This document shows positions 2,245 through 22,817 of a stretch of DNA of 64,000 nt, piece after piece. Below the pieces are notes generated by a model. That model was given only the letters and a program-made list of their open reading frames with translations. It was not told the origin of the DNA and did no database searches. How positions within the stretch are numbered: the first letter of the stretch is position 1; each line of letters opens with the position of its first letter. Position numbers and translations under genes: made by a program. The stretch comes from a bacterium (GTDB lineage Bacteria; UBA8248), in NCBI GenBank assembly GCA_022828125.1, contig JAJEJD010000015.1:55240-119239 (forward strand), in the 5' to 3' direction.

Positions 2245-3990
2245 CTACTTCGGCGGGATGACCGGCAAGAGCAGGTGGGAGGGGTGCTCGGGGCCGGTGT
2301 GGACCGTCACCTCGCCGCCGAACACCTCGGGCGGCCTGTCGGCAGGATCGTTGTGCCGGAACGGCCCCACGCCCGAGAAGACGGCGGGCATGTTGGGAAG
2401 CCCCTGGGTGACCCCGCCCGGGTAGACGTAGTCACAACCGCGCACGCTGAGCGCCAGGCGGTAGCCTTTGGGCGCCACGATGCAGGTCGGCCATATCTCG
2501 ACATCCAGCTCGTATATCTCGCCGGGCGTGAGCGGCTGTTTCTCATCGTGCGCGTGGTAGGGCCGGTAGGGCAGCGTGAGCGCCTCGTCCAGCTTCCGGT
2601 GCGAGGCCCGGAGCCAGCCCTGCGCCACCGGGGTGTGCGGGTCGAGCGCGCCCTGGAAGGTGACTTCCCTGAAATCGGGCGTGAACAATCTAAGAACCAG
2701 GAACAAATCGGCGTCCTGGGTCTCGGACGACACCCACAGCTTCGACGCCAGGGGGCCCGTGATCTCGGTTTCACGCTTCAGGGGAGGGGAGACGAACGTG
2801 ACGCCGTCGCTTAGACCTGCGTAGGCCGCCGAACTCGCCTCCTCCGGCGCGGCCTCGCCGAGCAGGTGGCCTTCCGAATGGAGATAGAGCTTCGTCCAGT
2901 TCGTGCGCGCGATGGGCCACTCGTTCTCCGCGCGCTCCACGAACTTCTCGCCGGGGTGGCGAATCTTAAGCTGCACCCTCGGCTGATCCTTCCAGCCCGT
3001 GTCCTCGCTCTTCAGGTAATGGCCGAAAAACTTCTTCTGGAGCGCGACGCCGTAATCGGTATAGAACTCCGTCCAGTGCTCGATGCCGTGGCTCTCCAGC
3101 CATTTTTCCTTGGAAGCCGCGCGCATAAAGGCCTCGCAGTTTCCCCTCGGGTGAAGCCCCTGCCCGCCCCAGTTGTTGGAAGAGAGAAAGGGAACCTCGA
3201 CTTTCGACCAGTCGGGCGTTTTCGCCTTCCAGTATTCATCGTCGAGCGGGTGCGCGCGCATCTCCGCCCCCAGAGGGCAGCGGTTCGCGCCCAGTTCCTC
3301 CTCGCTCAGCGTGTCCGGCCCCGAGACCCAGTCGCCCGTCACCCGGCTCTTGTAGCCGCGCTCGCCCAGGCCATGCTGTTTGGAGCGCCCCCTGTTCTGA
3401 TACCAGTTCTCCGTGAACGTGCAGTAGATGCCCCCGTGGTAGTTCATGTCGCGGTAGAAATCCGCCGCCCCCTCCCAGGCGCACATGGCGACGAGGTGCG
3501 GCGGCTTCAGGCAGGCGACCTGCCACTGGTTGATGGCGTAATAGGAGATGCCGTTGGCCCCCACCTTCCCGTTGCTCCAGGGCTGCGCGCCCGCCCATTC
3601 GATGCACTCGTAGAAATCGCGCGTCTCGCGCTCCGAGAAGGGGTCCATATAGCCTGGCGAGCGGCCAGCGCCTCTCGAATCCACTCGCACGCAGGCGTAG
3701 CCGTCCGGCACCCATTTCTCGGGGTCCACGACTTCCCAGTTCTGGTACTTGTTCGATGAACCCAAGGCGACGTCGGGGTGCTCTTCCACCATGCGGCGCC
3801 ATTGCTCAGGATAGCCGTCCTCGAAGTGGAGCCACTTCCCGTAAATCCCGTAGGTGATGATCACGGGGTAGCGGCCCTCATCAACAGGCCGGTAGACGTC
3901 GCAGCGCAGCACCAAGCCGTCGTCCATCTCGACAGGAACCTCCCAGTCGATCCGCATGCCGTCGGCGATTTCCGATTTACGCCCTCTCAT
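2245..3990 (-). CDS. CocE/NonD family hydrolase (peptidase S15)
   Basis: DSRGAGRSPG, WSNGKVG, GISY nucleophile elbow, C-terminal PepX domain. Confidence 0.93.
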   Translation of the reverse strand: MRGRKSEIADGMRIDWEVPVEMDDGLVLRCDVYRPVDEGRYPVIITYGIYGKWLHFEDGYPEQWRRMVEEHPDVALGSSNKYQNWEVVDPEKWVPDGYACVRVDSRGAGRSPGYMDPFSERETRDFYECIEWAGAQPWSNGKVGANGISYYAINQWQVACLKPPHLVAMCAWEGAADFYRDMNYHGGIYCTFTENWYQNRGRSKQHGLGERGYKSRVTGDWVSGPDTLSEEELGANRCPLGAEMRAHPLDDEYWKAKTPDWSKVEVPFLSSNNWGGQGLHPRGNCEAFMRAASKEKWLESHGIEHWTEFYTDYGVALQKKFFGHYLKSEDTGWKDQPRVQLKIRHPGEKFVERAENEWPIARTNWTKLYLHSEGHLLGEAAPEEASSAAYAGLSDGVTFVSPPLKRETEITGPLASKLWVSSETQDADLFLVLRLFTPDFREVTFQGALDPHTPVAQGWLRASHRKLDEALTLPYRPYHAHDEKQPLTPGEIYELDVEIWPTCIVAPKGYRLALSVRGCDYVYPGGVTQGLPNMPAVFSGVGPFRHNDPADRPPEVFGGEVTVHTGPEHPSHLLLPVIPPK

Positions 3991-4015: not shown

Positions 4016-5764
4016 TTATTCTTTCGGCGGTATCACCGGCAGCAGCACGTGGGACGGATGCGCCGGGCCGGTGTGCAGCGTCACCTTTCCGCCGAAGAGC
4101 TCCGTCGGCCTGTCCTCTTTGAGATCGTGCTTGAACGGCCCCACGCCGTAGTAGACGCGGCCCGATATTCTGGGCGCAGACGGCTCGTAGCCGGGCCAGA
4201 CGTAATCGCGCCCCCGGACGCTGATCGCCAGGCGGTATTCCTTGGGGATCACGATGGATGTCGGCCAGATTTCGACGTCCAGTTCATATATCTCGCCGGG
4301 CGTCAAAGGCTGAATCTCATCGTGCGTGTGGTAGGGCCGGTAGGGCAGCGTGAGGGCTTCATCCAGTTTCCGGTGCGAGGCCCTGAGCCACCCGATGGCG
4401 ACCGGCGTGTGCGGGTCGTTCGCACCCCGGTAGACGATCTCCGTCATGTCCGGCGTGAAGACGCGCAGGGTCAAGAAAAGGTCCGCGTCTTCCGTATCCG
4501 AGGAGACGAACAGCTTGGCCGCCACGGGGCCGGTGATCTCGGTTTCCTCGGCGAAGGGATGCGAGACGTAGACCAAGCCGTCGCCCAGGGCGTCATAGGT
4601 CTTCGTGCGCTCGTTGGTCTGGGGTTCCGCCCGGAAGGTGCCCGAACCCGAATGCAGGTAATACTTCGTCCACTGCGTTCGCGCGATGGGCCACTCGTTC
4701 TCAGCTCTCGGCACGAATTTCTCGCCCGGATGCCGCACCAGGAGCTGGACTTTCGGCTGCTCCTCCCAGCCCGTGTCCTCGCCCTTCAGGAAATGACCGA
4801 AAAATTTCTTCTGGAGCGCCACGCCGTAATCGGTATAAAACTCCGTGAAATGCTCCAGCCCGTGCATCTCCAGCCATTTCTGCTCGGTGGCCGATTGCAC
4901 GAAGCCCTCCGTGTTGCCCCTGGGGTGCAGGCCCACTCCGCCCCAGTTGCCCGAGGAAAGAAGAGGCACGTTGATCTTCGCGTAATCGGGCATGCGCTCT
5001 TTCCAGTAATCATCCACGAGGGGGTGATCCAGAATGTCCTGGCCGAAATCGCTCCGGTTGGATGCCAGTTCCTCTTCGCTCAGGTTGGCGGGGCCGGAAA
5101 TCCAGTCGCCGTTGATGCGGCTCTTGATGCCGCGGTTCCCCTTGCCGTGCTGGCGGGGAACGACGGCCTGGCGGTACCAGGTGTCCGAAAACCGGCAGGC
5201 GATGCCGCCGTGGTGGGCGAGGTCGCGGTAGAAATCGGCCGCTCCCTCCCAGACGCACATGGCCGCCAGGTGCGGCGGCTGGAGCGAGGCCACCTGCCAC
5301 TGGTTCATCCCGTAGTAGGAGATGCCGTTCAGCCCCACCTTGCCGTTGCTCCAGGGCTGCACGCCCGCCCACTCGATGCAGTCGTAAAAATCCCTGGTCT
5401 CGCGCGGCGACCACACCTCCAGATAGCCCGGCGAGCGGCCCGCGCCACGCGAATCCACGCGCACGCAGGCGTAGCCGTCGGGCACCCATTTCTCGGGGTC
5501 CACGAGCTCCCAGTTCTGGTATTTGTTGGTGGTGCCCATGACGGTCTCGGGATAGTCGTTCACCATGAGATTCCACTGGTGGGGATAGCCGTCCTGCAGA
5601 TGAAGCCACTTGCAGTAGGGGCCGTAACTCATGATGACGGGGTACCCGCCGTCCTCAATTGGCCGGTAGACGTCGCAGCGCAGCACGACGCCGTCGTCCA
5701 TCTCGATAGGAACGTCCCAGTCGACCCGCATCCCGTCTCTAACCTCGCTCTTGTACTCGCTCAT
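4016..5764 (-). CDS. CocE/NonD family hydrolase, tandem paralogue
   Basis: Same motifs; start set at MSEYKSEV by alignment to the paralogue and the upstream aaggcg RBS. Confidence 0.93.
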   Translation of the reverse strand: MSEYKSEVRDGMRVDWDVPIEMDDGVVLRCDVYRPIEDGGYPVIMSYGPYCKWLHLQDGYPHQWNLMVNDYPETVMGTTNKYQNWELVDPEKWVPDGYACVRVDSRGAGRSPGYLEVWSPRETRDFYDCIEWAGVQPWSNGKVGLNGISYYGMNQWQVASLQPPHLAAMCVWEGAADFYRDLAHHGGIACRFSDTWYRQAVVPRQHGKGNRGIKSRINGDWISGPANLSEEELASNRSDFGQDILDHPLVDDYWKERMPDYAKINVPLLSSGNWGGVGLHPRGNTEGFVQSATEQKWLEMHGLEHFTEFYTDYGVALQKKFFGHFLKGEDTGWEEQPKVQLLVRHPGEKFVPRAENEWPIARTQWTKYYLHSGSGTFRAEPQTNERTKTYDALGDGLVYVSHPFAEETEITGPVAAKLFVSSDTEDADLFLTLRVFTPDMTEIVYRGANDPHTPVAIGWLRASHRKLDEALTLPYRPYHTHDEIQPLTPGEIYELDVEIWPTSIVIPKEYRLAISVRGRDYVWPGYEPSAPRISGRVYYGVGPFKHDLKEDRPTELFGGKVTLHTGPAHPSHVLLPVIPPKE

Positions 5765-5845
5765 GTTTCGCCTTTCCGTGAAGAAGTGGATCACCGTCGG
5801 TGATGTATTTGGGGATGCGGGAAATATAACCGAGGGGACGGGGCT

Positions 5846-5950
5846 AGTCCAGATGGGTAAGGGTATTCGAAAAAGCAACCTTATCTCGAAAGGTGTTTCA
5901 AGGCTGCCGCAATTTCAGGAATGTGGACTGTAATTAGCAGGTGAAGGAGG
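5846..5950 (-). repeat. Cassette right-boundary motif R3
   Basis: Minus strand ...ccttcacctg...gtcca...ctgaaattgcggcagccttgaaacacctttcgagataagg...tttcgaat...catctggac; aligns with 7708-7812 and 8794-8900. Confidence 0.7.
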
Positions 5951-5983
5951 AGGTGAGAGTGAGAGACTGTACCAGGAAACTCC

Positions 5984-6265
5984 TCACTTCAAAGTATCGT
6001 CTTCAAATAGTTGAATGTAATCAGAACGATTTACACTGCAATCTACAATTTCTCGAAAAACTTTAGTCGACACTCCCAATTGCTTCGCCATGCGATTTTG
6101 CAAATAGTCATTGATGTCCTGGTTGTTGTGCGACATGAACGTCTCGCCAATTAACCTATCCTCATCAAATACTCGGTAATATATATGATGGCTATCTTCA
6201 TCAACTTCACATTTCAATTTATTGCGTAATGCTCTTCTGACTTCACGCGCTTTGTAGGTGGGCAT
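5984..6265 (-). CDS. HicA-like toxin
   Basis: 93 aa, DSHHIYY...MSH...DI...LQNRMAKQLGV pattern resembling the HicA dsRBD fold. Confidence 0.6.
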   Translation of the reverse strand: MPTYKAREVRRALRNKLKCEVDEDSHHIYYRVFDEDRLIGETFMSHNNQDINDYLQNRMAKQLGVSTKVFREIVDCSVNRSDYIQLFEDDTLK

Positions 6266-6275
6266 TCGGGGTGGA

Positions 6276-6638
6276 CTACCAATTTACAGTAACAACTTGA
6301 TGAAACAGAGCATCAAGGCGCAGCTTGCGTTTCTCCATATGCTTAGAGAGTTTTTTCGCAGAGTGAAGGGATTTCCATGATGCCTTCAGTGCTTGAAAGA
6401 GCGAAGCCATCGCTTCATCAGGAGTTGAACCTTCCCCATGATGCGGCAAATCCGGTTCCATCAACATATCGGCAAAATATCTTCCGTCTATTGCGTGTGT
6501 CTGAACAAAAGCCGGGATTTCTTCATAAGATTCTGCTGGTTGCTCAATAGGGGCGTAAGCAACTATCGAGGAACTCATTGAAGTATGCTCAACATCAGTT
6601 GTGGTGTTATTTACGGTATGAAGTAAAGTGGCGTTCAT
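6276..6638 (-). CDS. HicB-like antitoxin
   Basis: PDLPHHGEGSTPDEAMASL, HicB partial RNase H motif. Confidence 0.6.
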   Translation of the reverse strand: MNATLLHTVNNTTTDVEHTSMSSSIVAYAPIEQPAESYEEIPAFVQTHAIDGRYFADMLMEPDLPHHGEGSTPDEAMASLFQALKASWKSLHSAKKLSKHMEKRKLRLDALFHQVVTVNW

Positions 6639-6661
6639 TTCGTCGTACTCTCTCCTGGAAG

Positions 6662-6916
6662 TTATTCAGACTCCAGCACTGATATAATAGTGCCACTTCT
6701 CACATTGTAAATTGGATGCCCATCCAGCGCCCGCTCACCTTTGAATTTAGCAACTTCAACTACATCCACCCTAATTCGCAATATGGTTCCATCAGCAAGC
6801 TTGATTTTCATCGGTTTCTCAATAATCTCTTCGATTTCAACTATCTCTACATCATGCATTTCACCGGTTGTTGGATGTTTCATCTTTCGTTCTACCATAA
6901 CCAACCTTTTCTTCAT
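6662..6916 (-). CDS. Small beta-rich hypothetical protein (TA-associated)
   Basis: IKLADGTILRIRVDV...G.PIYNVRS; low GC; directly upstream of the hicBA-like pair. Confidence 0.65.
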   Translation of the reverse strand: MKKRLVMVERKMKHPTTGEMHDVEIVEIEEIIEKPMKIKLADGTILRIRVDVVEVAKFKGERALDGHPIYNVRSGTIISVLESE

Positions 6917-6989
6917 TTATATTGAAGTAGTGATTTCCCTATCCGTCGCCATGAGTGTGACTCCGTTCTCCGTATCGGAGTTGCAGGCG

Positions 6990-7070
6990 CCACTCACGAA
7001 CATACCCTATCTCATAGTGTGCAATGTTTCACCATATTCTGCCATACATTCCTGAAATTTCAATCGGCCT
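6990..7070 (-). repeat. Cassette left-boundary (promoter-like) motif L4
   Basis: Minus strand ttgaaatttcaggaatgtatggcagaatatggtgaaacattgcacactatgagatagggtatg; aligns with 9720-9800 and 8575-8655. Confidence 0.7.
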
Positions 7071-7111
7071 GGAACTCTGCTTCGCGCTCCCTGCGGGCAA
7101 CACGAGAAACG

Positions 7112-7462
7112 CTAAACCTCTGCGAATTTTTGCGGATCCACCCGGGGCAAGGGGACATCACAGGAGAAGATGTCCGGAAGGCTATGCGGGGATTTCGATT
7201 TCAGGTGCCGCTTCACGCTCTCGCGCTTCACGGATTCATAGAGCGCGTGATAGGAGGGCTCGGCGGGTACGAAAATTTCATCCAGGGTGTCGTGCTGCAC
7301 GGCGAACGATATCTGGGCCTCGACCGCTTCGGTCAGACTTTCCACCGCCTGATCTTGCGTTTCCCCATAGCCCCTGAGGCTCATATCCAGGGCAATCGCG
7401 CACCATTTCGCATCTTCCCGAACCACCAGAACGCGAAGAGTGTGGTTGAAATCCATGGGCGT
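7112..7462 (-). CDS. Orphan HicB-like antitoxin
   Basis: WCAIALDMSLRGYGETQDQAVESL, HicB-type motif; RBS aaggag upstream. Confidence 0.65.
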   Translation of the reverse strand, partial: TPMDFNHTLRVLVVREDAKWCAIALDMSLRGYGETQDQAVESLTEAVEAQISFAVQHDTLDEIFVPAEPSYHALYESVKRESVKRHLKSKSPHSLPDIFSCDVPLPRVDPQKFAEV

Positions 7463-7575
7463 GTGCACTCCTTTTGGTGTTCATCCGGGTGCCGAGATAG
7501 CCACGGCAAATTCAGGGACATAGCTTACATGGTTTTAAGAATGTTTGCATTCGACGCAATTTTCAATTCCCCCCA

Positions 7576-7711
7576 TCACTCGATTTTCTCCTCCAGCTTC
7601 CGCGTCGCCTCCTCGACGATTTCGCATACTTTGTCCATCACCTCGGGATGCGCGCGGAACGACTCGCGCACCTCCTTGACGATCGCCATCTTGGCGGCGG
7701 CGAAACCGGCC
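7576..7711 (-). repeat. 136-bp copy of the 3' end of the DUF3486-like gene (copy 3)
   Basis: Encodes AGFAAAKMAIVKEVRESFRAHPEVMDKVCEIVEEATRKLEEKIE*; 9 differences from 9812-9947 by manual count. Confidence 0.95.
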
Positions 7712-7812
7712 AGAGTGGGGTGACCGAAAAAATACTTTTATCTCGGAAGGTGTTTCAGAGCCGCCCAATCTCAGACGTTTGGACGGTTCTGCTCAGTTGA
7801 AGGCGTCGGTGG
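7708..7812 (-). repeat. Cassette right-boundary motif R2
   Basis: cgacgccttcaactgagcagaaccgtccaaacgtctgagattgggcggctctgaaacaccttccgagat, nearly identical to R1. Confidence 0.85.
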
Positions 7813-7851
7813 GGTTTGAAGGCAATAGGTTACCGGGACATATCTGGCAGC

Positions 7852-8262
7852 CTATGTCGTCAACTCGACGCTCCCGGTCAACCCGCTATAAGTCATCGTG
7901 AAATTTTCAAGAAAAGTCCTGCCGAGCAAGGCATGGTGGATTTGTCCTCCGCCAATCAAATCTACGGCGGCGAACCTGCCCAAAATGGTGCAATCCAAAG
8001 CGGGCACGTGAATATATGCGATGTGCATCGTCGTCCTGTGTCTACCCGACACCCCGGAAACTTCCACGCGGTCGACGACGGGCAGTTTCAAGTCGGATGC
8101 GACTTGCCGATCAATGCAACTCTCGGCCGCTCCCGTATCGACAAGGGCATGAAAACGCTTGCCGCTCGGGTCTTTGGGGTCGATACCTATTTCAACGGAG
8201 ATTGTCGGTCCGTACAGGGCCAGTTCCGAGGAAGTTTCAAAACCGCATTCAGCTTTTTGCAT
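7852..8262 (-). CDS. Clan AA (retropepsin-like) aspartyl protease
   Basis: ALVDTGA catalytic motif and LLGRTFL psi-loop. Confidence 0.88.
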   Translation of the reverse strand: MQKAECGFETSSELALYGPTISVEIGIDPKDPSGKRFHALVDTGAAESCIDRQVASDLKLPVVDRVEVSGVSGRHRTTMHIAYIHVPALDCTILGRFAAVDLIGGGQIHHALLGRTFLENFTMTYSGLTGSVELTT

Positions 8263-8500
8263 ATAAAGGCCTGTACATCACCGAAGCGGGGAGCCTCAGA
8301 GGCGGCGCTCCTACCTGCCTGATGAGATACGGCCCGCGATACCCGAATTTTTCAATGGCGTCGGTCGCCGCCTCATCGAAAGACTCATAGGAACCAACGA
8401 GCTTCTCGTCGTGAAAGACGACCCACTTGCCGAAATAATCGAGTTCGAGGTCATCTTTCATGGCCTCATACGTCTCGATTTGTTTTTTCAGGCCGCCCAT
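8249..8500 (-). CDS. DUF5678-like small protein
   Basis: YFGKWVVFHDEKLVGSYESFDEA...PYLIRQVG; overlaps the protease start; RBS aagga. Confidence 0.75.
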   Translation of the reverse strand: MGGLKKQIETYEAMKDDLELDYFGKWVVFHDEKLVGSYESFDEAATDAIEKFGYRGPYLIRQVGAPPLRLPASVMYRPLYAKS

Positions 8501-8574
8501 ATCTAATTCCTTCTCATCAAAGATAGATTGAAAACAATTATACTTTACTCTCTGGTTCACTTCGACCAGGGGAT

Positions 8575-8661
8575 TTACATCCCACAATTACACCCTGTCT
8601 TAGTAGGGAGAAACATTTTATCATACCTTGGCATAGAGTGCTGAAATCCTAACTGCCCCCA
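8575..8661 (-). repeat. Cassette left-boundary motif L2
   Basis: Minus strand gggggcagttaggatttcagcactctatgccaaggtatgat...aagacagggtgtaattgtg. Confidence 0.6.
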
Positions 8662-8797
8662 CTACTCCACCCGCTCCTCGAGCTTCCGCGTCGCCTCCTC
8701 GACGATTTCGCACACTTTGTCCATCACCTCGGGGTGCTCGCGGAACGACTCGCGCACTTCGGTGACGATCGCCATCTTGGCGGCGGCGAAGCCGTCC
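8662..8797 (-). repeat. 136-bp copy of the 3' end of the DUF3486-like gene (copy 2)
   Basis: Encodes DGFAAAKMAIVTEVRESFREHPEVMDKVCEIVEEATRKLEERVE*; 13 differences from 9812-9947 by manual count. Confidence 0.95.
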
Positions 8798-8900
8798 AAT
8801 GTGGGAGGATCGAAATAACACCCTGCTCTAGAAAGGCATTTCAAAGCCGCCACAATCTCAGACGATTGGACGGTTCTGCTCAGTTGAAGGCGTCGATGGA
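8794..8900 (-). repeat. Cassette right-boundary motif R1
   Basis: cgacgccttcaactgagcagaaccgtccaatcgtctgagattgtggcggctttgaaatgcctttctagag. Confidence 0.85.
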
Positions 8901-8957
8901 GGGGTTTAATGGGAAGCTAATCCGGGGGAAAATACCAACGACTTAAATTCACAACTG

Positions 8958-9212
8958 CTAATAAGCCTCGGGCAATTCATTTTTCGCACAGTCTTTGTCG
9001 ATATGCAGGTGACGTATCATCTTCCTGATATGGCCAATCTCGATCTCCGCCCGGCGTCCTCTTCCATGTTCTCCCTTCGGGAATGACGGATAGGTTCGAT
9101 CCCCATATCGGATGCAGAAGTGATGCGTGGTTTCCCTGATGTCACATCCAGGCGCGCACACTTCGAGCATATCCCAAATTTTCCTTAGTTGTACGCGTCC
9201 GCTCGAAGCCGT
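8958..9212 (-). CDS. HicA-like toxin (start probably ACG at 9212; first ATG at 9170)
   Basis: THHFCIRY...FPKGEH...EIEIGHIRKMIRHL; frame open up to the upstream stop codon. Confidence 0.55.
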   Translation of the reverse strand, partial: TASSGRVQLRKIWDMLEVCAPGCDIRETTHHFCIRYGDRTYPSFPKGEHGRGRRAEIEIGHIRKMIRHLHIDKDCAKNELPEAY

Positions 9213-9677
9213 TCAGGCGGCGATAGTTCTTAGTTCATCCAGCAGATTGTGCCGCGCCGTGGGTTTTTTCACCGTTCTAACCTGCACATAGGGCTGGTGC
9301 TCATCTGCGTTTTTCTTTTCCCGTCCTTCGGATTCGATATCTCCCCGGCGCACCGCCTCAACGGCTTCATCCCATTCCCGTTTCGTTTCTTCGCAAATCT
9401 CTTTGAAGAATGCCTCCACACGCTCTTTGAAGGTCGCGAAATCGACGGCTTCCTCCGCCATATCGAACAGGACGGACGTGTAGGTCCGTCGGAAAGCGGA
9501 GAAAGCCTTATCCTCATTTTCTCCGGTCGCAGCGATTCCCCCCGGCTGTACGCCGTACATCCATGTGGAATCATCCTCTTTCATCCCGAGGACCGTTCCC
9601 ATCATTCTTACGTCCGCCACGAAGCCGTTTCCTTCCACCTTGTCAGAGAAGGTGAAAAAGAAAGGAAACGCGCTCAT
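9213..9677 (-). CDS. HicB-like antitoxin
   Basis: WMYGVQPGGIAATGENEDKAFSAF motif; RBS aaaaggag. Confidence 0.55.
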   Translation of the reverse strand: MSAFPFFFTFSDKVEGNGFVADVRMMGTVLGMKEDDSTWMYGVQPGGIAATGENEDKAFSAFRRTYTSVLFDMAEEAVDFATFKERVEAFFKEICEETKREWDEAVEAVRRGDIESEGREKKNADEHQPYVQVRTVKKPTARHNLLDELRTIAA

Positions 9678-9719
9678 GTTCCACTCCTTTTCGGTTAGTG
9701 AATTGGTGCGAGAAATATC

Positions 9720-9811
9720 TCACAAAACCACACCCTATCTCACAATCTACAAAGTATCGCCATATCCTGCCATAGATCGCTGAAATCTCAACCCGCCTGA
9801 TCCGCCCCCCC
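9720..9811 (-). repeat. Cassette left-boundary motif L1
   Basis: Minus strand ttgagatttcagcgatctatggcaggatatggcgatactttgtagattgtgagatagggtgtgg. Confidence 0.75.
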
Positions 9812-10387
9812 TCACTCGATCCTCTCCTCCAGCTTCCGCGTCGCCTCCTCGACGATTTCGCACACCTTTTCCATCACCTCGGGATGCGCGCGGAACGATT
9901 CGCGCACTTCCTTGACGATCGCCATCTTGGCGGCGGCGAAGCCGTCCTGGTATTCGAGCTTGAGCTTTTCCGCCGATATGCGGCTGCGCTCCAGCCCGTT
10001 CACCATCTGCGCGAGTTTCTCGGGCGTCAGGTCCGCGAAGGATTCCTTCCCCATCTGGGAAACGGCCTCGACCGCCTGGGTCATCAGCATCCGCCGCGCG
10101 GCGGCGGCCACCTTCTCGCCCGGGTCCCTGCCCTCGCCGTCATAGGCCATGACTTCCTCGATCAGCTCATCCACCATGGCTTCCACCCGCTTGGTCTTGC
10201 GGATGCCTTCCAGCAGGCGGTTGTTGCGCCTGCCTATGGAGCAGAGCCCTATCTTCTCCCCGGTCTCCTTCTCGAAAGCCTCGGCCACCTCCTCGTAGGT
10301 CTTCCCCTCGGCGAGCATGGGGTCGACGACATTCTCGGCGCCGTATTCCACCACCTTCGACCTGCGCCCCCGCCTCCTCTCCATCAC
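9812..10387 (-). CDS. Mu-like phage gp27 / DUF3486 family protein (putative terminase small subunit)
   Basis: GRRSKV...TYEEVAEAF...GEKIGLCSIGR N-terminal HTH pattern; follows a gp26-like gene as in Mu-like phages. Confidence 0.7.
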   Translation of the reverse strand: MMERRRGRRSKVVEYGAENVVDPMLAEGKTYEEVAEAFEKETGEKIGLCSIGRRNNRLLEGIRKTKRVEAMVDELIEEVMAYDGEGRDPGEKVAAAARRMLMTQAVEAVSQMGKESFADLTPEKLAQMVNGLERSRISAEKLKLEYQDGFAAAKMAIVKEVRESFRAHPEVMEKVCEIVEEATRKLEERIE

Positions 10388-10716
10388 AATTCTCCCACGA
10401 GGATGTCGGGCGAAGCGGATACGGCGCCTTCGAGCAGACCGCGCCCCTTGCGGGTCAGGTGCGCCTCGTAGTCGGTCAGCAGGCGGCCGAAACCGCCCGG
10501 GGTGCGCTTTTCCAATAAACCCCGCCCTGCCAGATCGTCCACGAAGGCCTCGAGCGTCTCGCGGCCCAGGGGCGCGCCGTCCTCATGGTGGCCCGCCTCG
10601 CGCAGCGCGCTCCAAAGGAGAAGGCTGCCCACGCTCGATTCCGGGCGCAAGGCATCCTGGTAATACAGCGTCTTCAAAATGTCGCCGCGCAGGACGCGGG
10701 CCGTCAGTTCGTTCAC
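10384..10716 (-). CDS. Mu-like phage gp26-like winged-helix protein
   Basis: LRGDILKTL...AGH...LAGRGLL...AHLTRKGRGLLEG...PDI; 4-bp overlap with the next gene. Confidence 0.6.
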   Translation of the reverse strand: MNELTARVLRGDILKTLYYQDALRPESSVGSLLLWSALREAGHHEDGAPLGRETLEAFVDDLAGRGLLEKRTPGGFGRLLTDYEAHLTRKGRGLLEGAVSASPDILVGEL

Positions 10717-14906: not shown

Positions 14907-15273
14907 GCGCAATAGCGTTTCGAGGACAGACGCATGTTCTGCATCCTCGCGGACTCCTGCGCCGGCCATCTCCTGCGCGAGTGGGGGTCGAGAAGTTCAC
15001 GCGCGTCTACGCCGCGAAAGACGCCAAGGCCGCGATCCTCAAGGAGACGGAAAAACCCGACCGGCGGTGGAAGGAGGTGTGGCTGGGCGGGGTAAGGTAG
15101 GAGAGTTACGACCGAGGAGGAAAGAATTGCGTATTTGCAAAAAGAAAAGCCCCCCGGGTTTCCCCGAGGGGTGTAGTTTCATTCCAAGCTTGCTTCCTAG
15201 AAGCCGGGGTCCTCGTCGTGTGTGCGGAACATCGTTTGGTCTCCTTTCAGCGGCCGGATAGCTACAGACTTGC

Positions 15274-15819
15274 CTAACCGTTCAAATTATTCCATTTTCG
15301 ACATAAACTTTCAAGCCCTATATAAAGCCTGCTCCCCCTTCGATTTCTCAGGTCGGCAATCCACGGCTCGAATACGTCATAATAGCGTAAAACATTCGTT
15401 TGATACAGTTCGCGAATGACGCCTTCATTGACAAAACCCTTATCCACCAACACCGCCAAATCCTCAAGATAATTCAAGACATTCGTTATGTTTAATTCGA
15501 GCATGTCATCGTCTTTGATTCTCTCTTGTATAATTCTCAGCCTCTCCTCCCTCGGTTTGTCGGCTATGGGTTTTATTAGCCCGATGACGGCTTTTGGGGA
15601 GTCGAAAAAACTCGTGGTATTCCATTCGGAGGTGAGGGACATCGTGCGGGTCATTTGTTCGGATTCCACATTCGCATAAACGCTTTGAGCGATATAAAAA
15701 GCGCTGACGATTGCGGCTGCTGCGCCAACAGCTATGGCGATAAACGTCGCCAATTCCTTGTGGGCAGGCAAGAAGAAATACACGCCGACAATCACGCCGA
15801 CGAAGATGATGGCAACCAC
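15274..15819 (-). CDS. DUF4760-like membrane protein
   Basis: N-terminal TM segments; VLNYLEDLAVLV..G...E...R.......LY..LE.L...W pattern; low GC. Confidence 0.65.
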   Translation of the reverse strand: MVAIIFVGVIVGVYFFLPAHKELATFIAIAVGAAAAIVSAFYIAQSVYANVESEQMTRTMSLTSEWNTTSFFDSPKAVIGLIKPIADKPREERLRIIQERIKDDDMLELNITNVLNYLEDLAVLVDKGFVNEGVIRELYQTNVLRYYDVFEPWIADLRNRRGSRLYIGLESLCRKWNNLNG

Positions 15820-16731: not shown

Positions 16732-16918
16732 GACGACGCCCCTCCCGGGCGCAGATGCGGCGCGCTTCCGATGCGGCGTAATAAAAACCCGGATGACCCG
16801 CGCGGTCTCGAAGGTGCGTTGGTCTCGGAGGGGGGCGCCTCGCGGGCGGTTCGAGACGCCGGGTTCGGTGGGGAAGAAGGTGGGGTATTGCGGGACGGAT
16901 CATCCGGGCAAGGCGAAT

Positions 16919-16973
16919 TTCCGAAAAATTCGATAAATTTCGATAAATTCACGGGGTTTTTCGATAAATTCAT
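16919..16973. promoter_or_regulatory. Phased CGATAAAT direct-repeat operator-like motif (copy 1)
   Basis: ttccgaaaaattcgataaatttcgataaattcacggggtttttcgataaatt; near-identical to 50352-50407. Confidence 0.6.
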
Positions 16974-17179
16974 GGAATTTCCTTTTTTTCTTCATAAGGT
17001 CAACAATATCAACTAGATATCCGATTCATCCACCTGTGTGTGATATTCTTATTCACACATCAGGCAACGGCAATATATCTATATATATTTATAATGTCAA
17101 GGAAAATATCCAAAAATATCTATTGCCGGGATGCGGTCGTGCAAGTCATTGACAAGAAAGGAGATACGAAGAGGTCGGG

Positions 17180-18064
17180 CTAGTCGAGGTCTCTGCCCAG
17201 AAGCTCGATGAAGCGCCTCACGCCGCCGTGGAGCGGCTTGTCGCGCCTGTGGATGAGGCCCAGCGGCCGGATGATGCGCTCGCCCTCGAAGGGCAGCACC
17301 GCCAGGGTGTTCATGGCTCGTTCATTATGAACGGCCGAACCGGGCAGAATGCTCACCCAGGTGTCGATGAAGAGCGCCTCCTTGATGCTCTCCACGTTGT
17401 CGAACTCCATCACGACGTCCACGCCGACGCCCGCCTTGCGCAAGACCCTGTCGATCGCGCTTCGGATGGCGAGATCGGCATCGAACGCCACGAACGGTTC
17501 GCCCGCGAGGTCGGGTAGTCTCACCGCATGGCGAAAGGCCAACTGATGCCCCGGATGCGAGACGAAGAACATGGGTTCCTCCTTGAAGGACACGACCCGG
17601 AGCGCCTTGTCTCTCGGGGGGTAGGAGAGGATTCCGATGTCCGCCGTATCGTCCAGAACGGATTGCACGACTTTCTCGGGGTGGAGGCATTCGAGCCGAA
17701 CCCGCGCCTGAGGATACAGGGAGCGGAACCGCTGCATGTAGGCGCCCATCTGGTGAAGGCCCACCGAGTAGATGGCCGCAACGCGCACTTGTCCGTGCAC
17801 CTCGCCGATGCCGTATGATATTTCCGTGCAGACCTGGTCGAATTCCCCCAGCATCTTTCGGCACGCCTCATAAAACCGGGCGCCTTCTTCGGTGATGCCG
17901 AAAGGCCGCTTGCTCCTGTCGAGCAACTCGACGCTCAAATCTCCCTCGAGCTGGCGAAGCGCCTGACTCGCCGCAGACTGGGTCACGCCGCTTTGAGCAG
18001 CTCCCTTGGAAAAACTCTTTTCCTGGATGATACGGCAATACAGCCTCAAGGATTCGATGTTCAT
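17180..18064 (-). CDS. LysR family regulator divergent from gltBD
   Basis: SFSKGA...TQSAASQALRQLE HTH plus LysR substrate domain. Confidence 0.95.
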   Translation of the reverse strand: MNIESLRLYCRIIQEKSFSKGAAQSGVTQSAASQALRQLEGDLSVELLDRSKRPFGITEEGARFYEACRKMLGEFDQVCTEISYGIGEVHGQVRVAAIYSVGLHQMGAYMQRFRSLYPQARVRLECLHPEKVVQSVLDDTADIGILSYPPRDKALRVVSFKEEPMFFVSHPGHQLAFRHAVRLPDLAGEPFVAFDADLAIRSAIDRVLRKAGVGVDVVMEFDNVESIKEALFIDTWVSILPGSAVHNERAMNTLAVLPFEGERIIRPLGLIHRRDKPLHGGVRRFIELLGRDLD

Positions 18065-18091
18065 GAGAAAAGGTTACAATATAAATAATCC

Positions 18092-18106
18092 TAATGCAAT
18101 ATATTA
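18092..18106. promoter_or_regulatory. Candidate LysR operator
   Basis: AT-rich palindrome TAAT-N7-ATTA between the divergent lysR and gltB genes. Confidence 0.35.
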
Positions 18107-18268
18107 AATATTTTAGTTTGTCTTATTTTTCAGCGCGTGCTATACTCGAAGTCCGTTTCATGGAAATCATCATGCGATGTCCATAAGACGCTCTCAGGAG
18201 TTCCCCGTGAAATGGGCAAACGGGGAGTTTTCCTGGAACTTCACTCGGAAAGAAAGTTTGGTGAAACA

Positions 18269-22817
<4,549 letters not shown>

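Follow-up and report, generated by a model that had tools for sequence, protein, structure and literature searches.

A cassette array downstream of a Mu gp27-like gene

The stretch analysed here, called the window throughout, comprises 64,000 nucleotides (nt) of a bacterial contig (GenBank assembly GCA_022828125.1, contig JAJEJD010000015.1, positions 55,240 to 119,239; GTDB lineage UBA8248), and our subject is an array of small cassettes that lies on its minus strand, directly 3' of a gene resembling Mu gp27 and small terminase subunits, referred to below as gp27. Self-comparison of positions 5750-10450 found the 3'-terminal 136 nt of gp27 three times on the minus strand (9947-9812, 8797-8662 and 7711-7576), once as the end of the intact gene (end A) and twice as copies further downstream (ends B and C). 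Between the gene ends lies unrelated low-GC cargo, bordered by two recurring motifs, L (~90 nt) and R (~140 nt). Reading away from gp27, the order is L1-c1-R1, end B-L2-c2-R2, end C-L'-c3 and L4-c4-R4-GGAC, where c1 to c4 are the four cassettes (Table 1), and beyond the last GGAC follows a gene for an S15-family peptidase, here cocE. All three gene ends share their start base, at a GGAC or GGCC corresponding to gp27 nt 441. A preliminary description of this DNA had reported three 136-bp gene ends with a common start, this order of elements and the recurrence of L and R around unrelated low-GC cargo, all of which the self-comparison confirmed, and its reading of the extra ends as displaced copies of the 3' end of the gene is supported.

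The individual alignments are unequal in strength. The region of end A matches that of end C over 143 nt at 93.0% (9947-9805 vs 7711-7569, E 8e-58) and that of end B over 187 nt at 83.4% (9947-9761 vs 8797-8622, E 2e-53), while R and gene end together align over 244 nt at 85.7% (8899-8656 vs 7812-7570, E 2e-77). L1 and L4 are 77.8% identical over 81 nt (9799-9719 vs 7071-6993, E 3e-12) and R2 and R4 71.6% over 88 nt (7811-7725 vs 5955-5868, E 3e-6); a separate repeat search also returned three 201-nt copies. Among the gene ends themselves, identity is 93.4% for A and C, 90.4% for A and B, and 88.2% for B and C. The leader L' is unrelated to L in sequence. Across the array the GC content drops from ~0.65 to 0.39-0.55.

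Table 1. Features of the cassette array and of the genes on either side, in window coordinates
Feature	Coordinates	Strand	Description
gp27	9812..10387	-	intact, 191 codons, Mu gp27 / small-terminase-like; last 136 nt are copy A
L1	9719..9811	-	promoter-like leader before cassette 1; 96.8% to L of L027
Cassette 1	8958..9677	-	154-aa (9677-9213) and 70-aa (9170-8958) genes; no family match
R1	8798..8940	-	right-flank copy ending TGGAC; 82.8% to R2 over 99 nt; R profile E 1.2e-44
Gene-end copy B	8662..8797	-	displaced, 136 nt, TAG stop; nearest is L025 gene end, 93.4%
L2	8580..8661	-	divergent L copy; L profile E 2.4e-27
Cassette 2	7852..8587	-	small protein (weak DUF5678) and clan AA aspartic protease (8262-7852)
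R2	7712..7850	-	right-flank copy ending TGGCC; 85.4% over 96 nt to L026 terminal R
Gene-end copy C	7576..7711	-	displaced, 136 nt; 93.4% to copy A
L'	7480..7575	-	alternative leader, always with cassette 3; 95.8% to L024, 92.7% to L025
Cassette 3	7112..7468	-	118-aa gene; HicA-like partner of 5 relatives missing in window
L4	6993..7071	-	L copy separating cassette 3 from cassette 4; not preceded by a gene end or R
Cassette 4	5984..6916	-	84-aa, 120-aa and 93-aa (HicA-like) genes
R4	5851..5990	-	native right flank, adjoins cocE promoter; R profile E 1.1e-38
cocE promoter-like site	5823..5851	-	TGGACT-17-TATATT (promoter scan); -35 box is last GGAC, 5850-5847
cocE, S15-family peptidase (CocE/NonD-like)	4016..5764	-	PF02129 and PF08530; ATG at 5764
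up110	10384..10716	-	110-aa gene directly upstream of gp27

For comparison we assembled 22 related loci, which carry three-digit numbers (L024 and so on) and come from 20 genomes of the same Nitrospinota genus and two metagenome contigs, so that 23 loci are available with the window included. The two contigs were the whole yield of a metagenome scan, and a viral scan gave no locus.

Assembly support for the array

Read evidence was taken from the contigs of four sponge-metagenome runs (X1-X4) of one study, one of which may be the source of the window. The contigs of X1-X4 cover 30 of 30 bins but break within each gene end. Two of the runs, X3 and X4, hold variant strains, with 10-22 differences per contig. 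From R2 into end C, contigs of both X3 and X4 extend 48 nt into the end, and from R1 into end B a contig of X3 extends 78 nt and one of X4 30 nt; in X1 and X2, the contigs reach ~30-36 nt into the ends among those listed. Contig depth is near-equal over the four cassettes and gp27 (11.5-14 in X1, 22-33 in X2), as expected if the cassettes are lined up within a single genome, and not if they are alternative alleles. Since the contigs break inside each gene end, the order of c1 and c2 is not provable from them. No contig joint skipping a whole unit was found in X1-X4, although contigs drop rare forms and are therefore silent on excision.

These data bear on the possibility that strain variants of one locus were collapsed or chained into a false tandem array. 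The genome is metagenome-assembled, and with short-read contigs that break in the gene ends the order of c1 and c2 rests on the assembly of the window. However, contigs from runs other than the possible source cross from R into a gene end (78 and 48 nt in X3, 48 nt in X4), the depths of the cassettes do not sum to that of gp27, and arrays with displaced ends are also present in genomes consisting of one contig and of 8 contigs, e.g. at L029 and L040. An assembly artefact is thus scarcely credible, and the near-equal depths together with the contigs that cross from R into the gene ends argue that the array is genuine rather than a collapsed misassembly.

Two further observations concern the strains in these runs. 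A contig of X4 joins 9696 to 9805 and leaves out L1, and probably stems from a co-occurring relative in which a different leader precedes c1. In X3 and X4, a gene end before L2 has a tip like that of end A (joint 8654 to 9804, with 38 nt on one side), which hints at exchange between the end copies.

The L and R repeats and the GGAC core

Alignment of 15 copies of L from 12 loci brought out a conserved TTGAnA together with a TATGGCAnGATAT block and a TGAGATAGGGT block, and a promoter scan of L4 returned TTGAAA-16-CAGAAT with an upstream TG at 7063-7036. Judging by these motifs, L may be a shared promoter and leader. For R, profile searches located copies next to cocE in 7 other loci (L026, L035, L033, L038, L037, L030 and L034) and a marginal one in L062 (E 0.0017), with more diverged forms of R visible in the alignment. 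Because R is present beside cocE in single-cassette loci, e.g. L026 with the order gp27-L-c4-R-cocE, it is the ordinary native right flank of the site.

The GGAC at the end of R proved to have an identity of its own. The motif TGGAC-N17-19-TATAnT is found in 21 of the 23 loci, including those of distant species that share no cassettes, the exceptions being L038, with just 13 nt of contig left beyond TGGAC, and L040, in which cocE is not the immediate neighbour. This promoter motif of cocE, with GGAC in its -35 hexamer, is conserved where its surroundings are not. The preliminary description had placed GGAC within an attachment (att) site; a -35 box conserved whatever the cargo speaks against that role. 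With GGAC as the -35 box, the joint between R and a displaced gene end becomes a right flank fused to gp27 nt 441 at a microhomology of 4 nt, which reads CAGGAC in the gene and CTGGAC in the promoter.

No sign of att-type structure was found in the repeats themselves. Consensus folds of 11 R copies and 15 L copies gave 0 predicted pairs, in keeping with the earlier statement that attC sites are lacking, and a structured RNA or an attC-like hairpin was rejected for L and R on this ground and for want of any Rfam match at E<=1 in 5600-10500. We also rejected the idea that L and R are diverged copies of one element, since 10 of the 12 L-R pairs did not score above shuffles; the scores of the two best pairs were reached by 6/300 and 11/300 shuffles. 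Elsewhere in the genome the best matches to L and R had E values of 0.92 and 0.18. The one notable inverted repeat, a perfect 14-nt pair at 5911-5924 (in R4) and 7046-7059 (in L4), brackets cassette 4; as a candidate for the ends of the cassette it was dropped, since the other loci with c4, judged by eye, have not kept it.

Variability of the locus across related genomes

In the related loci the flanks are 82-97% identical, and the stretch from the gp27 stop to cocE varies from ~0.6 to 4 kb. Cassette c1 is present in 9 of the 22 loci, c3 likewise in 9 with a partial match in L042, c4 with all three of its genes in 5, and c2 in none, and a further cassette, c5, occurs in 4 of the 18 relatives that were clustered. 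The cassettes following gp27 appear in the combinations c3, c3-c4, c4, c1, c1-c3, c3-c5 and c1-c5, and while c1 precedes c3 in L025, L027 and L029, the reverse order, c3 then c1, is seen in L030. The site is thus a genus-wide hypervariable spot between gp27 and the S15 peptidase promoter. The cassettes c1, c3, c4 and c5 in varied combinations and in both orders fit the idea that units accumulated serially and show that they were shuffled, and the comparison of L, R and the gene end with the genome and with relatives showed repeats confined to this locus in the genome and a number, order and content of cassettes that vary among relatives.

The locus nearest to the window by its flanks is L024 (95.4% in cocE, 97.0% in up110, the gene upstream of gp27). 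Here, a unit of end-L'-c3 sits directly on gp27, and over 605 nt it is 93.7% identical to end C-L'-c3 of the window. Set against L024, the two cassettes closest to gp27, c1 and c2, seem to have been added later, which agrees with the proposal of the preliminary description that the newest cassettes lie closest to gp27. Other parts of the array have their nearest counterparts in different relatives. End A is nearest to L026 (96.3%), end B is nearest to L025 (93.4%) and has variants in common with L038 and L039, and L1 is 96.8% identical to that of L027 although gp27 itself is only 89% identical to that of L027. With the ends, L1 and c3 closest to different relatives, the units appear, as far as such comparison can tell, to be of foreign origin.

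Joints in related loci

Several of the related loci also contain repeated pieces of gp27, and the joints lie elsewhere in the gene. In L029, nt 357-565 of gp27 are repeated (209 nt, 97.6%), in L061 nt 361-576, in L030 nt 187-258 (72 nt) and 351-582 (232 nt) before c1, and in L025 the last 24 nt. L029 and L061 have their joint in common. It has the start of R fused to ~nt 357 and 257 of 297 aligned positions the same, and would appear from the sequences on either side to sit at a shared (G)ACGCC. The cargo that follows this joint is L'-c3 in one locus and L-c5 in the other, from which it follows that a joint, after a single origin, can remain or spread while its neighbours change. Two more loci, L025 and L027, appear to be derived from this joint by deletion. 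The length of the repeat differs between lineages: 136 nt in the window (twice), ~209-220 nt in L029 and L061, 72 and 232 nt in L030, and 24 nt in L025. The joint of the window, R-TGGAC to nt 441, is present in 0 of the 22 related loci.

A different arrangement is found in L040 (relative G007). Here, ~0.3-3.2 kb 3' of the gp27 stop, a 110-nt piece is present three times, with 94.5% and 93.5% identity between neighbouring copies, and this piece is the leader plus the first codons of a downstream adenylate-cyclase gene. Copy 1 precedes an inserted N6_N4 methylase-Mrr fusion and copy 2 an inserted GmrSD_C nuclease, both of them defence-type genes, and copy 3 belongs to the cyclase gene. The displacement is the mirror image of those in gp27, with its anchor on the opposite flank. 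Together with the varied positions of the joints in gp27, it implies that insertions duplicating a flank have occurred several times. An MNT-HepT pair was noted after the cyclase gene.

In the window, an open reading frame (ORF) of 63 codons runs from a GTG start in R1 in the gp27 frame through the displaced end B (8662-8853, minus strand), and similar ORFs span the displaced ends in L029, L030 and L061.

Site-specific capture or an old duplication

The preliminary description had proposed that gene-sized circles with R-GGAC-gene end-L as their attachment site integrate repeatedly at the GGAC of gp27, forming an integron-like platform that has no attC; the recombinase would be encoded elsewhere. 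A version of the same idea is that R-TGGAC-gp27 tail-L is a true att site at which a remote recombinase, or the up110-gp27 pair, captures ~1-kb promoter-bearing cassettes at nt 441. If so, this would be a cassette platform unrelated to integrons, and the other joints of the relatives would be occasional illegitimate by-products. The regularity of the array is in favor of such a process, in that two joints fall at exactly one base, all three ends are 136 nt, and recurring L and R frame unrelated cargo. Moreover, the units look foreign rather than duplicated in place, both joints are found in co-occurring variant strains, and there are 16 matches to the tyrosine-recombinase family PF00589 elsewhere in the genome. 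None of these 16 matches, however, lies on the contig of the window (C29), and the ten locus proteins scanned (nine cassette ORFs and gp27, or eight with up110 and gp27) contain no recombinase domain, so that the earlier remark that the window has no recombinase stands for the cassettes and for the contig. The role of GGAC as a promoter box kept regardless of cargo speaks against it too, as do L and R, which have no predicted structure, are not alike and are confined to the locus. The far end of the array is R-GGAC-promoter, without the gene end that integration needs. Conservation at synonymous codons shows no excess at nt 441, being 0.92 there against 0.74-0.94 along the gene. Finally, the joints of relatives fall at nt ~357 and ~187, one relative has a mirror-image duplication of a leader, and none of the 22 shares the nt-441 joint. 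The proposed circles with their attachment site are thus countered by the promoter identity of GGAC, the ragged joints and the lack of a recombinase on the contig, and of the integron-like platform serial capture fits, but a dedicated att site is not supported. We hold dedicated capture at the GGAC to be quite improbable, and give the version with a true att site the same low credence.

Another possibility is that of one old tandem duplication made in place. Here, unequal exchange at GGAC between gp27 and the promoter would have created the first joint, unequal crossover would have expanded it, and the cargo would later have been replaced through L or the gene end and R. This has the merit that a single illegitimate event accounts for two identical joints, with nt 441-444 of gp27 and the -35 box having a 4-nt microhomology in common. 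In addition, both R1 and R2 cluster with the terminal R of L026, a locus whose gp27 is among the nearest to that of the window. The copies have nevertheless diverged like those of different species, with 88-93% identity among the ends and 83% between R1 and R2, and each end resembles the gene of another species as much as, or more than, the other copies in the array. In R, the joint-proximal half is the most diverged, the reverse of what would be predicted if the joint were shared and the distal parts replaced, and no other genome among the 22 loci has kept the duplication. In the preliminary description, a fixed identical array in relatives with ragged repeat boundaries was given as the sign of such an origin; no fixed identical array was seen among the 22 related loci, whereas ragged boundaries do occur between lineages (136, ~220, 72 and 232, and 24 nt). 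On balance, an old duplication in place seems unlikely to us, if somewhat less so than dedicated capture.

A proposed pathway by serial displacement

The account that we favor, with moderate confidence, is serial displacement, in which homology-anchored insertion with rare joints at microhomology is followed by reshuffling through homologous recombination. Small self-contained operons, several of them of a toxin-antitoxin (TA)-like, HicA-type kind and most of them behind the leader L, would gather at the spot. Incoming DNA of related strains would anchor by homology in gp27, and from there two variants can be envisioned: in the linear one, the far end would be joined at a short microhomology, and in the circular one, the fragment would close on itself at a microhomology and integrate by a single homologous crossover. 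Either route would restore the whole of gp27 and push a 3' copy downstream. In the case of the window, the right flank up to the -35 box TGGAC would have been fused to gp27 nt 441 via the common GGAC. As gp27 sequence would then lie to either side of a unit, homologous recombination of the ordinary kind could carry it into any genome with a single gp27, move, duplicate or delete it, or exchange its cargo, also by looping it out as a circle and back in, and no dedicated recombinase would be needed. Given that gp27 is under purifying selection, only those insertions that restore the gene would survive.

The first step has a known counterpart in homology-facilitated illegitimate recombination, where homology anchors one side and a microhomology of 3-8 nt serves to join the other; if the donor is circular and has a single homologous segment, this segment ends up as direct repeats. 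The process has been described in laboratory transformation of Acinetobacter, Pseudomonas and Streptococcus, and differs in that here it is deduced from its products, in uncultured symbionts.

A number of points weigh against serial displacement. The joint between R-TGGAC or R-TGGCC and nt 441 occurs twice in the window with R copies that are just 83% alike, and since microhomology is unlikely to have acted twice independently at a single site of 4 nt, the account must assume that the joint arose once and then spread. Ends B and C have no private shared substitutions that would point to a common origin, and the joint was found in none of the 22 related loci, which therefore offer no trace of its history. 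The copies of L and of R, 72-86% alike over 80-100 nt, would be poor substrates for RecA-type exchange, and yet cargo has been swapped close to the edges of L and R despite their shortness and divergence. Nothing indicates DNA uptake; homologues of ComEC and DprA are present, but are matched in 10/14 and 11/14 control genomes as well. The read data, being contigs, cannot reveal rare excised or circular forms. The two joints at nt 441 could go back to a single illegitimate event, with unequal and homologous exchange thereafter, or could reflect a true preference for the site.

The anchor gene and its neighborhood

The gene that anchors the array matches Phage_Mu_Gp27 (PF11985) with 33.9 bits at a cut-off of 28 (33.3 bits in the genome search) and phrog_426, terminase small subunit, with an E of 9.6e-11. 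Its family is present as a single copy in the genome of the window. Against 11 orthologues, the ratio of nonsynonymous to synonymous substitution rates (dN/dS) of gp27 is 0.12-0.42, indicative of purifying selection. Within the genus, gp27 was found in 20 of 22 genomes by protein search and in 21 of 22 by DNA search, one of the latter being a match of only 25 nt. In the 20 genus loci fetched, it is accompanied by up110 upstream in 19, by a phage lysozyme in 16 and by cocE downstream in 18, with 83-95% nucleotide identity of cocE across the genus loci; in the window, a holin of the gene-transfer-agent type sits between the lysozyme gene and gp27. The protein of up110 has no match in Pfam, NCBIfam or PHROG. 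The up110-gp27 pair is kept in all 5 loci fetched from other genera of the family (L076-L080), without the lysis genes or cocE, at amino acid identities of 64-76% for up110 and 42-47% for gp27, and may be a functional unit retained by the host.

No large terminase was found in the 97%-complete genome with the Terminase_6C, Terminase_6N and TerL_ATPase families; the Portal_Mu profile search was uninformative, as its control matched nowhere. From the purifying selection, the retention of the pair in other genera and the lack of a large terminase, we conclude that gp27 is an old, retained, orphan phage-derived gene and does not belong to a live prophage. The idea that a functioning phage or gene-transfer agent supplies cuts at gp27 was considered and set aside, given that no large terminase of the three families was found, and is left as speculation.

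Some features of the neighborhood are recorded here. Positions 2245-3990 and 4016-5764 of the window (minus strand) hold tandem S15 peptidase (CocE/NonD-like) genes with 75% identical DNA, and both copies are matched in 16 of the 20 genus loci. In L036 (relative G004), the gp27 frame shifts near codon 50-60 and the protein match falls into two pieces, owing to a broken gene or to an indel in the assembly. L080 (relative G023, of another genus) has ORFs of 82 and 73 amino acids directly after gp27 (2582-3054), and their weak matches to aspartyl proteases (E 0.005) recall cassette 2. More patches of low GC (0.40-0.49 against a background of 0.6-0.7) lie at ~15150-15750, 16800-17250 and 17850-18300 of the window, near a DUF4760 gene and a LysR regulator.

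Cassette cargo

The preliminary description had called most of the cargo TA-like, specifically hicBA-like or hicB-like, and this stands in part. The last gene of cassette 4 (c4c) matches HicA (PF07927) with an E of 1.9e-4 and 21.9 bits, below the cut-off of 27, and the toxin family phrog_353 with an E of 5.6e-5. Likewise, the partner of c3 in L024 matches PF07927 with an E of 1.7e-4 and 22.0 bits, below the same cut-off, and c5 of the relatives consists of a DUF1902 gene above cut-off and a HicA-like gene (26.5 bits in L032, cut-off 27). By contrast, scans of Pfam, NCBIfam and PHROG matched no family for the cassette-1 proteins or for those described as hicB-like (c1a, c3 and c4b), and the putative antitoxins of c1, c3 and c4 show no detectable relation to DUF1902 or among themselves, with E values of 0.18-0.51 in profile comparisons to c5. 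The modules are similar to HicAB type II modules in being small two-gene operons with matches to the HicA domain in c4, in the c3 partner and in c5, and differ in that the HicA matches fall just below the Pfam cut-off and the putative antitoxins of c1, c3 and c4 have no HicB family match.

Cassette 2 had been described as DUF5678 plus a protease. The protease part is well supported (PF13975 with 34 bits at a cut-off of 28.2; TIGR03698, E 6.8e-8), whereas the match of the small protein to DUF5678 is weak (E 0.026). Among 5.8 billion proteins, c1a has 28 homologues at E<=0.001, none with a family, and the two that have a source name are both from Nitrospinae. Comparison of the cargo proteins with PDB sequences gave nothing below E 0.1, and none has a second copy in the genome, except for a 35%-identical relative of c4a on contig C13.

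Comparison with known systems

A literature search on titles and abstract openings found no prior description of this locus. The islands called tycheposons, which sit at tRNA genes, carry an integrase and stack in tandem between partial copies of their target, with newcomers pushing the older ones inward (bioRxiv 10.1101/2020.12.28.424599). The units seen here are alike in being flanked by partial copies of the 3' end of a target gene. They differ in being ~1.1 kb long without an integrase, in a repeat length that is not fixed across lineages, and in an outermost unit without a following gene end.

The likeness to integrons lies in a one-directional array of small cassettes at one site, several of them TA-like, with a content that varies among relatives and with additions near the anchor being plausible. 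Here, however, there is no adjacent integrase, no attI and no attC-like inverted repeats or hairpins, the cassettes carry leaders that are promoter-like by their motifs, and the boundaries vary between lineages. A caution follows for the reading of such loci, in that target repeats of equal length that have 4 nt of core in common can be mistaken for an att site where this core is in fact the promoter box of a neighbouring gene.

The closest comparison may be drawn with the displacement arrays of Rhs, contact-dependent inhibition (CDI) and type VI secretion system (T6SS) effector genes. For Rhs and T6SS effector arrays, published models propose that homologous recombination is paired with illegitimate recombination and that orphaned 3' ends are left behind, and the authors of the T6SS work invoke homology-facilitated illegitimate recombination and note both a likeness to integrons and the lack of an integrase (PMC8125069, PMC5361080). 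Such arrays have, like ours, an intact gene followed by orphaned 3' copies in the same orientation, each with its own following genes, and their content differs by strain, with homologous exchange of whole arrays proposed (PMC8125069, PMC5361080). The irregular joints between lineages, of three types, and the GGAC microhomology of the present locus are of the same kind. It departs from them in its anchor, which is Mu gp27/TerS-like and not a polymorphic toxin, with a displaced tail that is conserved and not variable; in its cargo, which consists of independent operons that lie beyond the stop codon and have a promoter-like leader of their own; and in its far joint, which uses the promoter of a neighbouring gene. 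Displacement arrays would thus not be confined to polymorphic toxin genes, and a domesticated, conserved phage gene can anchor the stacking of TA-like and defence-type cargo in uncultured sponge symbionts. With 23 locus variants and at least three independent types of joint, one of which has spread beside different cargo, the site offers a natural record of how a hotspot could grow without a dedicated mobile-element enzyme.

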